Part shown: piece after piece, positions 1,020 to 44,500 of the stretch
Layout of the letters: every line of letters begins with the position of its first letter
Numbering within the stretch: the first letter of the stretch is position 1
Assembly: GCA_043812455.1 (NCBI GenBank)
Contig: JBDRMB010000027.1
Span: 1 to 61,351 of the forward strand
Source of the DNA: an archaeon
GTDB taxonomy: Archaea > Nanobdellota > Nanobdellia > Woesearchaeales > GW2011-AR9
DNA length: 61,351 bases
Direction: 5' to 3'
Made by a program: the position numbers and the translations under genes
The notes under the pieces: model-generated
Told to the model about the DNA's origin: nothing
The model's database searches: none
The model's input: only the letters and a program-made list of their open reading frames with translations

Positions 1020-1033
1020 TGGGACTGCAGGGA
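1020..1033 (-). other. Orphan tRNA-like 3' end
   Basis: Minus strand reads TCCCTGCAGTCCCA then TATTTTTTT; 10/14 identical to the 3' end of the nearby tRNA-Phe (TCCCACCGTTCCCA). Confidence 0.4.
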
Positions 1034-1073
1034 CCCACATACCCACTGGTCAAGTATACAAATTGTATATAAA
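1034..1073 (+). promoter_or_regulatory. 22-bp conserved box plus TATA box, copy 1
   Basis: CCCACATACCCACTGGTCAAGT, 9 bp, then GTATATAAA; the same arrangement occurs at 37362 and 44461. Confidence 0.7.
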
Positions 1074-1091
1074 TAAGTTAATCTCACATAA

Positions 1092-1136
1092 TATCACTCT
1101 TTGTTTTCTTAATTAGCGAAAAACAAAGAGGTGATA
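1092..1136 (+). promoter_or_regulatory. 5'-UTR hairpin sequestering the Shine-Dalgarno of the LAGLIDADG gene
   Basis: TATCACTCTTTGTTTT (1092-1107) pairs with AAAACAAAGA-G-GTGATA (1120-1136), 16 bp with one bulge, covering GAGGTGAT. Confidence 0.6.
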
Positions 1137-1140
1137 AAAT

Positions 1141-1857
1141 ATGAAATTTGATGTGAAAAATGTAAATTTAAGCTATTATGATAAGAAAATTGGACTAATT
1201 CTTCCAGAATGTCCTTCATGCGAATTAGCAGAGTTTATTGGAATTCTTACTGGCGATGGTTATATGAATAAATATGGAAAATACTTTTCTATTGTAGAAA
1301 TTGTTGGAGATCCTAGGTTTGACAAAGCATATTTAGAAAATCATGTTACAAATATGATTAATAATTTATTTAACTTGAAACCAAAAGTAGATTTCAAGAG
1401 AACTCAAAACCTAATGAGCATAAGATTGATGTCTAAAGGATTGAATAATTATCTTGAATTGGTTGGTTTCAAGTCTGGGAAGAAAGGTCAAATCGGAATT
1501 CCTTCTTGGATTTTAGAAAATGATGAATATATGAAATTTTTTATAAAAGGTTTAGTTGACACTGATGGGTGTTTAACTTTGCTTAACAGAAAGCATAAAA
1601 ATTTTAATTTTTATCCAAGAGTACAAATAACCTCAATTAGTAAATCATTAATAGATGATGTTGGGACATGGTTAAGTAATCAGGGATTTTCTGTATGTTT
1701 AATGAAAGACTGTGGAAAAAGAACATACAAAGGGGTAACTAAAATTCACGAAGGTTATCGATTTAATATTAATGGTTATACACAACTTCAGGTTTGGATG
1801 AATCTTATTGGTTTTAGAAATAAGAGACATTTAGATAAATATGAAAAGTTAAAATAA
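1141..1857 (+). CDS. Free-standing double-motif LAGLIDADG endonuclease
   Basis: Motifs LAEFIGILTGDGY and FIKGLVDTDG; no intein splicing termini evident. Confidence 0.85.
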   Translation: MKFDVKNVNLSYYDKKIGLILPECPSCELAEFIGILTGDGYMNKYGKYFSIVEIVGDPRFDKAYLENHVTNMINNLFNLKPKVDFKRTQNLMSIRLMSKGLNNYLELVGFKSGKKGQIGIPSWILENDEYMKFFIKGLVDTDGCLTLLNRKHKNFNFYPRVQITSISKSLIDDVGTWLSNQGFSVCLMKDCGKRTYKGVTKIHEGYRFNINGYTQLQVWMNLIGFRNKRHLDKYEKLK

Positions 1858-1861
1858 AAAA

Positions 1862-1995
1862 TGGGAACGGTGGGATTTGGACCCACAACTTCCAGATCTT
1901 CAGTTTCACCAAAGATATTGAATCCAATACCTTACTGGCGCTCTTTTCTGCAAATGCAGAAAATTTGCAATTGTCCCAGATTAAGCTACGTTCCC
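1862..1995 (-). tRNA. tRNA-Phe(GAA) with two introns (D-loop and 30/31, about 30 nt each)
   Basis: Acceptor GGGAACG/CGTTCCC-A; spliced anticodon arm CCAGA-CTGAAGA-TCTGG; T arm GTGGG-TCCAAAT-CCCAC; both introns form hairpins, and the 30/31 intron has BHB-like geometry. Confidence 0.85.
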
Positions 1996-37361: not shown

Positions 37362-37401
37362 ACCACACATCCACTGGTCAAGTGCGGACAAAGTATATAA
37401 A
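37362..37401 (+). promoter_or_regulatory. 22-bp conserved box plus TATA box, copy 2
   Basis: ACCACACATCCACTGGTCAAGT, 9 bp, then GTATATAAA. Confidence 0.7.
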
Positions 37402-37439: not shown

Positions 37440-37471
37440 TTTTCAAGTTTAAGATTGTAGAAACTTGAAAA
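37440..37471 (+). promoter_or_regulatory. 5'-UTR hairpin of the second LAGLIDADG gene
   Basis: Perfect 11-bp stem TTTTCAAGTTT/AAACTTGAAAA covering TTG 37465 and ending 8 nt before ATG 37480. Confidence 0.55.
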
Positions 37472-38181
37472 CTAAAAAAATGAATATTAAAAAAATTCAT
37501 AAAATTGATCTTAATGAAAATACTGCCTATCTTGCAGGAGCAATTGTTGGAGATGGTCATATTTCTAATTCTTGTAAATCAAAAACAGATAAATCTAAAG
37601 ATTACAAAATTGCCATAGAAGTAATAGATAAGGAGTTTTTGATGGAAGTTGAAGCTTTAATTAAATCTATCATACAAACTAAAAGTACTATTAAAGGGCG
37701 ATATGACCTTAGGGGATGTAGAAAGAAATTGTATTATTTTCAGTTCAGGAATAAGAGCTTCTACTATTTTTTGACAAAAGATCTAGAAATAAAGGCAGGT
37801 AATAAGTGTTCTTCTGTAGTTATTCCAAAGAAAATATTTTATTCATTAAACTTACAAAAATCCTTCATTGCTGGTCTTTTTGATACTGATGGGGGAATAA
37901 GGGGAAAAACAATAGGATTTACTTCTTCAAGCAAAATATTAATTTATCAAACAAGTATAATTCTAAATAACTTGAAAATAAAACATTCTGTAGAATCTTG
38001 GCTAAACAAGAAATATAACCAGAAGTATTATGGAATAAGAATTAGTAAGATAGATAGCGATATCTTTTTAAATAACGTACCTCTTAGGAATAAAGAAAAA
38101 CTCAAAAGAGTCTTTTATCATGTGGGCGTGCCGGAGTGGTCAAACGGGATAGAAAATTCTATGATCCAAATCAAGAATTAG
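37465..38181 (+). CDS. Free-standing double-motif LAGLIDADG endonuclease overlapping tRNA-Leu
   Basis: AYLAGAIVGDGH and FIAGLFDTDG; the last 20 codons run through the tRNA 5' exon into its intron. Confidence 0.85.
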   Translation: MKTKKMNIKKIHKIDLNENTAYLAGAIVGDGHISNSCKSKTDKSKDYKIAIEVIDKEFLMEVEALIKSIIQTKSTIKGRYDLRGCRKKLYYFQFRNKSFYYFLTKDLEIKAGNKCSSVVIPKKIFYSLNLQKSFIAGLFDTDGGIRGKTIGFTSSSKILIYQTSIILNNLKIKHSVESWLNKKYNQKYYGIRISKIDSDIFLNNVPLRNKEKLKRVFYHVGVPEWSNGIENSMIQIKN

Positions 38182-38272
38182 TCCAAGCTTAGGCCGGTTT
38201 GGTAAGGTATAAACTTACTGGAAGATACCTATTGGTTTAGTACCTACGCAGGTTCGAACCCTGCCGCCCACA
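38122..38272 (+). tRNA. tRNA-Leu(TAG) with two introns (30/31 and 37/38)
   Basis: Acceptor GTGGGCG/CGCCCAC-A; spliced arm ATAGG-CTTAGGA-CCTAT; long variable arm; introns 38153-38186 and 38194-38226. Confidence 0.88.
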
Positions 38273-44460: not shown

Positions 44461-44500
44461 CCCACACACCCACTGGACAGGTTCGGAAAAGGTATTTAAA
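44461..44500 (+). promoter_or_regulatory. 22-bp conserved box plus TATA box, copy 3
   Basis: CCCACACACCCACTGGACAGGT, 9 bp, then GTATTTAAA. Confidence 0.7.

Follow-up and report, generated by a model that had tools for sequence, protein, structure and literature searches.

By function, the closest described parallel to the genes considered here is F-CphI of cyanophage S-PM2, which, as Zeng, Bonocora and Shub are said to have reported in 2009, lies beside the intron-containing psbA gene and takes part in collaborative homing. A free-standing nuclease gene there adjoins a gene whose intron lacks an open reading frame (ORF); the proposal is that this intron disrupts the site which the nuclease would cut and that the pair spreads jointly. 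By protein, the closest are I-DmoI, I-Tsp061I and I-PorI, single-chain LAGLIDADG endonucleases of archaea that are linked to bulge-helix-bulge (BHB) introns of stable-RNA genes. By footprint, the closest is the mobile ORF of Allomyces atp6, a fungal mitochondrial endonuclease gene that reportedly duplicates the 3' end of its host gene (work attributed to Paquin, Laforest and Lang, 1994); the element brings a replacement gene end and the original is displaced downstream as a decaying repeat. SegB of phage T4, with its Seg/Mob relatives, offers a fourth likeness, in that free-standing nuclease genes sit among transfer RNA (tRNA) genes and bias the inheritance of neighbouring markers. Here we describe two LAGLIDADG cassettes in a 61,351-nt stretch of DNA ("the window"; contig JBDRMB010000027.1, GenBank assembly GCA_043812455.1, GTDB Woesearchaeales, GW2011-AR9), one beside tRNA-Phe (locus 1) and one beside tRNA-Leu(UAG) (locus 2), together with their homologues in related archaea. 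The reading that we favour, and consider probable, is that they encode selfish, tRNA-specific, I-DmoI-like homing endonucleases that spread jointly with a protective intron.

A first-pass annotation of the window had proposed that the two loci share one layout, in which a 22-bp box and, 9 bp further on, a TATA box precede a leader hairpin, a double-motif LAGLIDADG ORF and an abutting tRNA, and all of these elements were recovered when we re-read the sequence (Table 1). Alignment to orthologues likewise bore out its assignment of a non-canonical intron at the 30/31 position to both tRNAs. The layout differs from each precedent. Relative to F-CphI and psbA, where a self-splicing group I intron interrupts a phage gene and the nuclease is of the HNH type, we find putative protein-spliced BHB introns of 18–35 nt, a cellular archaeal tRNA gene as host, a LAGLIDADG protein and many parallel nuclease lineages, one per tRNA; cleavage and joint spread are predicted here. 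The ORFs of I-DmoI, I-Tsp061I and I-PorI lie within large rRNA introns, whereas those in the window stand outside the tRNA and have promoters of their own, next to introns too small to contain an ORF, and the earlier statement that they are not intron-encoded holds. Footprints resembling that of atp6 occur at five tRNA loci (L009, L030, L051, L048 and L088) and at a topoisomerase VI subunit A gene (L005), but the hosts are mostly tRNA genes on an archaeal chromosome and a putative BHB intron accompanies the element. SegB, in contrast, is a phage-encoded GIY-YIG enzyme with no intron partner and without the specificity of one nuclease per tRNA. What sets the present family apart from these systems is the combination of putative protein-spliced mini-introns, cellular tRNA hosts, parallel tRNA-specific lineages and apparent wiring into a repair regulon. 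Searches of the open-access literature turned up no account of free-standing archaeal LAGLIDADG genes linked to tRNAs.

Mobile DNA has been linked to tRNA introns before. Sugahara et al. are said to have put forward, in 2012, a mobile-element model of tRNA gene disruption for Caldiarchaeum tRNA-Thr. Another model, that of Randau and Söll (2008, as summarised in PMC4090602), has introns shielding tRNA genes against elements that integrate. In both models, as in ours, tRNA genes are targeted by mobile DNA and introns or tRNA fragments result; however, the agents there are virus or plasmid integrases or recombinases, whereas here the candidate is a LAGLIDADG cassette of about 0.85 kb without a recombinase, and the intron would travel with the element instead of defending against it. 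According to reviews and a 2026 Asgard preprint (bioRxiv 10.64898/2026.10.13.758758), the route of archaeal tRNA intron gain is not known; the preprint tested mobile elements, copying between tRNAs and reverse transcription, and left the arrival route open. Intact nuclease genes that each go with a single tRNA and a specific intron position, and whose sites can be empty in a sister genome, offer a concrete DNA-level mechanism that can be assayed. If the favoured reading holds, collaborative homing would come to include, besides the group I introns of phages, protein-spliced introns in the genes of cells, selfish nucleases would appear to be wired into a host DNA-repair regulon, and dozens of natural nucleases with differing predicted tRNA-gene specificities would be at hand.

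To place the two loci in a family, we searched 80 relatives in six frames with the locus-1 protein as query and added the genome that holds the window, for a total of 81 genomes. The latter, a 1.14-Mb assembly with 33% G+C, is designated G000, and the window is its contig C27; G001 is a congeneric genome, and the remaining G-numbers denote relatives from the same family or order. We collected 79 free-standing homologue loci, each oriented by its ORF, from 39 of the 81 genomes (G000 included), with up to seven copies per genome. The tRNA genes were detected by an intron-tolerant scan for a T-arm with a complementary acceptor stem, and the two window tRNAs, which carry two introns each, were confirmed by alignment to intron-poorer orthologues; false hits of a relaxed scan in AT-rich DNA (L017, L035, L036, L054 and L082) were excluded from the counts. 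A tRNA lay within 135 nt of the ORF at about 50 of the 79 loci in the strict scan and at eight or more further loci by eye, and thus at no fewer than 70% in total, compared with a chance expectation of about 3% derived from the tRNA density of G000. The first-pass annotation had suggested such a survey of relatives, and the adjacency is enriched.

The geometry of the pairs is recurrent. The tRNA is almost always found at the 3' end of the ORF. In the convergent arrangement, the ORF typically overlaps the tRNA by 18 nt and its TGA stop is supplied by the antisense T-loop (GGATTTGA), and in the co-directional arrangement the ORF runs into tRNA exon 1. At the convergent locus 1, the stop codon lies 4–5 nt from tRNA-Phe. 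The best match to the locus-1 protein outside G000 (55% identity; all others at most 42%) is an orthologue beside tRNA-Phe in G039 with the same geometry, and the locus-2 pair with tRNA-Leu(UAG) recurs, also with unchanged geometry, in G018. In a maximum-likelihood tree of 76 proteins, the clades track tRNA identity, requiring 16 label changes compared with 34.9 for shuffled labels (0 of 200 shuffles as low), and comprise Phe (two clades), Ile, Pro, Cys, Trp, Asn, initiator Met, Leu(UAG), Leu(GAG) and Ser. Overall, the nuclease family is large, patchy and multi-copy; it occurs in DPANN-type archaea of this taxonomic family and order, and each of its lineages keeps to a single tRNA gene. The two window proteins share about 26% identity over their N-terminal halves only, which indicates two separate lineages and not a recent duplication.

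Next, we considered whether the proteins look active. The motif pairs of the window proteins are GILTGDG with GLVDTDG and GAIVGDG with GLFDTDG, and both catalytic Asp residues are present in the locus-1 nuclease. Across the family, the acid of motif 1 is Asp in 76 of 76 members, while that of motif 2 is Asp in 74 and Glu in two. A phmmer search of PDB sequences with the locus-1 protein alone returned no match, and a family profile was required: a 14-member profile matched I-Tsp061I (2dch, full length), I-DmoI, PI-PfuI and the V-ATPase intein endonucleases (E from 1e-15 to 1e-9). For the locus-2 protein, I-DmoI is the closest solved structure (E = 6e-6). The loss of nuclease residues that the first-pass annotation had named as a mark of a WhiA-like protein was looked for and is not seen, since all 76 proteins keep both catalytic acids; with Pfam detecting no helix-turn-helix domain in either window protein, we rejected a WhiA-like, LAGLIDADG-derived regulator. 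The locus-2 protein and its G018 orthologue are 70% identical without gaps, compared with 62% for the lysyl-tRNA synthetases of the same genomes, pointing to selection on the nuclease protein or to recent transfer, and arguing against decay. The nucleases are apparently active, single-chain LAGLIDADG homing endonucleases of the I-DmoI/I-Tsp061I type.

Comparison with the congeneric genome G001 revealed clean empty sites. The G001 tRNA-Phe is without a nuclease gene; its tRNA-Leu(UAG) is a syntenic empty site that keeps the divergent Cys-rich neighbour gene, with a 135-nt spacer and no nuclease; and at its tRNA-Leu(UAA) the prefoldin neighbour is kept and the nuclease, present in the G000 counterpart (contig C37, locus L009), is absent. 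The reverse polymorphism also occurs, at tRNA-Asn and tRNA-Met, which have a nuclease gene beside them in G001 but not in G000. In addition, a second, partial copy of the tRNA end is found on the promoter side of the cassette at L009 (27 of 30 nt identical), L051, L048, L088 and L030. The relic at L030 comprises positions 31–76 of tRNA-Met; its edge coincides exactly with the 30/31 junction at which the functional copy has its intron. The cassettes measure about 0.85 kb and contain the LAGLIDADG ORF only. At least some of them appear to bring along a substitute for the tRNA part that they adjoin, and the tRNA-end copies left behind are a feature that the first-pass annotation had not described. 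Integration of the integrase type was considered and rejected, given that the cassettes hold no recombinase and the flanking repeats are diverged and not identical attachment (att) sites.

A related footprint is seen at a protein-coding gene. At L005:1-1467 (G000:C17:38475-39941), a box-driven LAGLIDADG cassette adjoins the gene for topoisomerase VI subunit A at its 3' end. A diverged repeat (about 75–80% identity) of the last approximately 19 codons of that gene (…FVMEKYLPEKLKNPKSWLP) forms the C-terminus of the nuclease, whose reading frame is broken at this locus into pieces of 91 and 262 amino acids. In the window itself, the putative tRNA-Phe relic on the far side of the locus-1 cassette (TGGGACTGCAG-GGACCCACA) resembles TGGGAACGGTGGGATTTGGACCCACA at 1862-1887; the match is gapped and weak, its local alignment score reaching only the 95% level of the null.

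We then asked how the nuclease co-varies with the 30/31 intron. Removal of the introns restores a canonical tRNA that matches its orthologues in pairwise alignments with G001 and others; the exons of the window tRNA-Phe align to the intron-less tRNA-Phe of G031 and further genomes. Five tRNAs are polymorphic for the nuclease between G000 and G001. Three have the nuclease in G000: tRNA-Phe carries D-loop and 30/31 introns there and the D-loop intron only in G001, tRNA-Leu(UAG) carries 30/31 and canonical introns compared with the canonical intron only, and tRNA-Leu(UAA) carries the canonical intron and three or four extra ones, one of them at 30/31, compared with the canonical intron only. For the two with the nuclease in G001, tRNA-Asn has a 30/31 intron there and none in G000, and tRNA-Met has the canonical intron only, compared with 30/31 and canonical introns in G000. 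Four of the five pairs agree with the model. At both the Phe and the Leu(UAG) locus, for which the first-pass annotation had suggested a comparison with relatives, G001 thus lacks nuclease and 30/31 intron alike. The D-loop intron of tRNA-Phe is independent of the nuclease, because G001 has an intron at the same position.

The association extends across genera. All five nuclease-linked tRNA-Phe alleles (G000, G039, G040, G044 and G014) have the 30/31 intron, compared with one of seven unlinked alleles (Fisher's exact approximately 0.008), and the same is true of five of five nuclease-linked tRNA-Ile genes. By our own reading of the sequences, on which these allele counts also depend, the intron is present in 18 of 47 classifiable linked tRNAs versus 1–2 of 34 unlinked tRNAs of G000 and G001. 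The collection of tRNA-Phe alleles with the pattern ACTGAAGATCTGG gave eight true alleles in the 81 genomes, the remaining alleles being interrupted or divergent in sequence, and an automatic anticodon-arm parser for 30/31 introns was dropped on account of too many alternative parses. Among linked tRNAs, 30/31 introns occur with seven or more clades of nucleases; the Pro and Cys clades go with D-arm introns instead. Orphan 30/31 introns, without a nuclease, are found in tRNA-Met of G000 and tRNA-Phe of G005.

The physical link is tightest at locus 2. The ORF, of 233 amino acids from ATG or 238 from an upstream TTG, overlaps tRNA-Leu(UAG) by 60 nt, so that its last 20 codons cross tRNA exon 1, and its stop codon (38179-38181) falls inside the 30/31 intron, which holds no more of the ORF than its last nine codons and the stop. 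The G018 orthologue (L089) shows the same tRNA overlap, with its stop likewise in the homologous 30/31 intron. The ending of the ORF within the intron in both genomes means that nuclease gene and intron are fused into one stretch of DNA.

These observations suggest the following model. The target of each nuclease would be its cognate tRNA gene, most probably the uninterrupted region of the D-stem and anticodon arm. The allele next to the nuclease would be shielded, usually, by a small, ORF-less BHB intron inserted into the target: position 30/31 is occupied in the Phe, Ile, Leu and Arg lineages and in part of the Met and Asn lineages, the D-arm in the Pro and Cys lineages. A naive allele would be cut, and repair from the cassette-bearing allele would copy nuclease and intron jointly, as in collaborative homing or a cleave-and-rescue system. 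In at least some events, the element would bring its own tRNA part, the old part being left as a decaying direct repeat, and later recombination between the repeats would remove the nuclease gene, with an intron surviving as an orphan; in the model, the orphan 30/31 introns of G000 tRNA-Met and G005 tRNA-Phe are explained by such loss. The box promoter may ensure that the nuclease is made alongside the recombination machinery that homing needs, with the timing of the radA regulon.

Expression may also be restrained after transcription. The locus-1 leader hairpin, which pairs with the ribosome-binding site, has a predicted stability of -16.2 kcal/mol (z = -5.2), and 0 of 200 shuffles were equally stable. 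The locus-2 leader forms a perfect 11-bp hairpin, and over its full 80 nt is as stable as shuffled sequences (z = -0.13). Leader hairpins that occlude the ribosome-binding site probably hold translation low, and leader hairpins that limit translation are known for phage I-TevI.

Several results weigh against this model. The tRNA-Met pair is reversed, with the nuclease lacking a 30/31 intron in G001 and the intron lacking a nuclease in G000. No fewer than five nuclease-linked tRNAs (L050, L065, L067, L070 and L086) have no intron, and among near-identical Cys-clade nucleases the tRNA at L054 has a D-loop intron and that at L065 does not, which implies that self-immunity does not always need an intron. 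Most of the tRNA copies left behind end in the T-arm and not at 30/31, so the insertion junction and the intron site need not coincide. The gene order of nuclease, tRNA-Leu and lysyl-tRNA synthetase, common to G000 and G018, fits long vertical co-inheritance as well. G000 is richer in introns than G001 also at nuclease-free tRNAs (C24, Leu-GAG, C43:18563 and C43:18991), weakening the paired test, and intron positions were assigned by eye and by pairwise orthologue alignment, not by a validated tool. The coupling of nuclease and intron claimed in the first-pass annotation therefore survives in part: co-variation is seen within the genus and across genera, and the tRNA-Met pair and the intron-less linked tRNAs depart from it. 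Its suggestion that the cassettes account for the short introns here does not stand for all of them, since many differences between G000 and G001 involve no nuclease. At least five are found in nuclease-free pairs (C24:35284, C14:41012, C43:18563, C43:18991 and C3:9781), four of them G000-specific introns in the D-loop or at the canonical site, and tRNA intron turnover in the genus is very fast.

Some of the same results feed an alternative in which the nucleases do home to specific tRNA genes but the introns play no part in it. Recognition would be of the tRNA end with its flank, insertion itself would destroy the site, and the abundance of introns would reflect a dynamic lineage or hitch-hiking by co-conversion. 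The constant position of cassettes at a tRNA end, the T-arm breaks in the majority of relic repeats, the intron-less linked tRNAs, the close Cys-clade nucleases with and without an intron and the many nuclease-independent differences between G000 and G001 are all as it would predict. What it does not account for is the concentration of 30/31 introns in linked tRNAs (18/47 versus 1–2/34), their recurrence in seven or more separate nuclease clades and tRNA types, the extra intron of the nuclease-bearing allele in four of five polymorphic pairs, the L030 relic that ends precisely at 30/31, and the Leu-locus ORF that stops within the intron, and we regard it as unlikely. Still less probable, in our estimation, is that the proteins are domesticated and vertically inherited LAGLIDADG nucleases or DNA-binding proteins with a host function, for example the repair of DNA or the control of the box regulon, with tRNA adjacency a matter of old, frozen insertions. 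A promoter element common to radA, hef, nreA and xseAB would suit such a role, as would the conservation of the Leu-locus nuclease above that of lysyl-tRNA synthetase between G000 and G018, the synteny of this locus in the two genera, and the longer paralogues with helix-turn-helix extensions in G000 (L001, L008, L011, L013 and L014). Yet the genes occur in only 39 of 81 genomes with varying copy number, the congeneric G001 has clean empty sites, flanking duplications look fresh, the catalytic residues are intact, unlike those of WhiA, and the tie of each clade to a different tRNA would be needless for a general host function.

We give very little credence to a third alternative, namely that the proteins are maturases that aid the splicing or folding of a heavily interrupted pre-tRNA next door. 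LAGLIDADG maturases of organellar group I introns are an established class, and neighbouring tRNAs here do have several introns; however, BHB introns are cut by a protein splicing endonuclease and require no maturase, the residues for DNA cleavage are strictly conserved, some partner tRNAs are intron-less, and the promoter is one shared with DNA-repair genes. A bolder extension of the homing model, possible but in our judgement doubtful, would make the cassettes generators of non-canonical archaeal tRNA introns. The element would enter at the nuclease cut site in the tRNA gene, replacing the adjoining tRNA part; its junction segment would fold as a BHB and be spliced out as a new intron; and recombination between the duplicated tRNA parts would later delete the nuclease, so that a short, ORF-less intron remained. 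If true, this would be a general DNA-level route by which tRNA introns, and occasionally mRNA introns, are gained and spread in DPANN and other archaea, timed by the radA-regulon promoter.

The promoter element itself reaches well beyond the cassettes. Within the window, the 13-nt core of the box occurs five times (at most two mismatches) compared with 0.77 expected, and G000 as a whole has about 17 copies of core plus TATA, each 9–10 bp upstream of the TATA box. By Pfam, the genes that it heads in G000 include the radA operon, hef (a helicase with an ERCC4 nuclease domain and an intein), nreA, the OB-fold/HD-domain gene with xseA and xseB, a PD-(D/E)XK nuclease, two Bro-N proteins, a "homing endonuclease associated repeat" protein and about eight LAGLIDADG genes. 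Sites beyond the window lie on contigs C16, C17, C40, C42 and C29 (L003, L004, L006, L007, L011 and L012). In G001, copies of the box precede the radA operon, xseAB and a gene for a Xer-type recombinase. The core CACTGG[AT]CAA, about 10 bp from a TATA box, also precedes most nuclease homologues in other genera; a survey for the box was among the checks proposed in the first-pass annotation. Its treatment of the box as a feature of the cassette did not hold up, because radA, hef, nreA, xseAB and other non-cassette genes have the box too. We conclude that the nuclease genes are in one regulon with DNA-repair and recombination genes, of which the box is the predicted operator or upstream promoter element, and the placement of the box upstream of the B recognition element (BRE) and TATA box suggests an activator site. 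To our knowledge, no comparable archaeal operator has been described. We discarded two other interpretations: a relic of a tRNA D-arm, since TGGTCAA is the sole match, the sequence on either side of it cannot be aligned and many genes other than tRNA genes carry the box; and a cassette-specific element or mimic of the nuclease target, given that different nuclease clades and radA, hef, nreA and xseAB have the box in common.

Table 1. Features of the two cassettes and of the third box copy in the window (positions in the window; + forward, - reverse strand)
Feature	Position	Strand	Basis or remark
Locus 1
Degenerate relic of tRNA-Phe 3' end (acceptor strand and T-stem)	1020-1042	-	Reading by eye; upstream of box, far side of cassette
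22-bp box, copy 1, CCCACATACCCACTGGTCAAGT	1034-1055	+	Motif counts; putative upstream promoter element of DNA-repair regulon
TATA box, GTATATAAA	1065-1073	+	Sequence reading; 9 bp after box
5' leader hairpin, pairing with ribosome-binding site GAGGTGA (1128-1134)	~1092-1136	+	Folding versus shuffles
LAGLIDADG ORF, 238 aa, double-motif, free-standing, tRNA-Phe clade	1141-1857	+	PF14528 (LAGLIDADG_3), E = 5e-7
tRNA-Phe(GAA), two introns, convergent with ORF	1862-1995	-	Intron-tolerant scan and orthologue alignment
Non-canonical 30/31 intron of tRNA-Phe, 30 nt	1905-1934	-	Alignment; G001 without intron and without nuclease
D-loop intron of tRNA-Phe	~1946-1973 (bounds ~2 nt)	-	Alignment
Locus 2
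22-bp box, copy 2	37362-37383	+	Motif counts; 9 bp, then TATA box
TATA box, GTATATAAA	37393-37401	+	Sequence reading
Perfect 11-bp leader hairpin (37440-37450 with 37461-37471)	37440-37471	+	Predicted fold
LAGLIDADG ORF, free-standing, tRNA-Leu(UAG) clade	37480-38181	+	PF14528, E = 3e-15
tRNA-Leu(UAG), two introns, co-directional with ORF	38122-38272	+	Intron-tolerant scan and alignment
Non-canonical 30/31 intron of tRNA-Leu(UAG), 34 nt	38153-38186	+	Alignment; absent in syntenic nuclease-free G001 allele
Canonical intron just 3' of anticodon, tRNA-Leu(UAG)	~38194-38225	+	Alignment; G001 intron at same position
Elsewhere in the window
22-bp box, copy 3, heading operon of OB-fold/HD-domain protein and exonuclease VII (xseA, xseB)	44461-44482	+	Pfam matches downstream; segment 44461-46990

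The tRNA genes of these genomes are easily missed. ARAGORN and Rfam (at the gathering score) overlooked both window tRNAs and found tRNA-His as the sole tRNA in the window. The T-loop of tRNA-Phe (1862-1888, minus strand) reads TCCAAAT and not the near-universal TTCRAAT, implying C at position 55, and this C55-type loop is one cause of standard finders missing the gene. Standard tools overlook most such tRNA genes, so the tRNA complements of these genomes are under-called.

Three LAGLIDADG-type genes of G000 have in common a 5' leader (L008:2813-2960 (-), L010:340-486 (+) and L011:2819-2966 (-)) that is conserved, about 150 nt long and structured (z = -2.6 to -4.0), and the terminal hairpin of which covers a GGAGG ribosome-binding site; the leader may be a cis-regulatory RNA element. 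At L008 (G000:C29:34574-37874), the box drives a 380-aa LAGLIDADG gene directly upstream of a cysS-like ORF. The longer paralogues at L013:1241-2620 (459 aa) and L014:1106-2527 (-) (473 aa) have N- and C-terminal extensions and no box, and one of the two overlaps the start of an ABCE1-like gene and is separated by 296 nt from a tRNA with an intron. Both may be relatives that have been domesticated or have a regulatory role.

At tRNA-Trp of G001, a box-driven ORF of 249 aa (L114:412-1161, G001:C5) precedes the tRNA gene, and Pfam reports weak, sub-threshold similarity to PD-(D/E)XK families (SfsA, PDDEXK_3) and to a winged helix-turn-helix. The same tRNA-Trp in G000 is adjoined by a LAGLIDADG gene, so that a different nuclease family may occupy the tRNA-Trp niche in G001. 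Canonical introns of tRNA-Trp (L010, L071, L082 and L083) and of elongator tRNA-Met (L030, L033, L055, L073 and G000:C34:4223-4384) contain motifs like RTGATGA…CTGA, as in C/D-box guide RNAs, and in this they resemble the tRNA-Trp intron of Haloferax. Finally, upstream of locus 1, the window encodes a nucleotidyltransferase with a helix-turn-helix (47-580), followed by a 105-aa ORF without a Pfam match (691-1008); the layout of this segment (47-1008), which directly adjoins the tRNA-Phe relic end, resembles that of an MNT-HEPN-type toxin-antitoxin pair.

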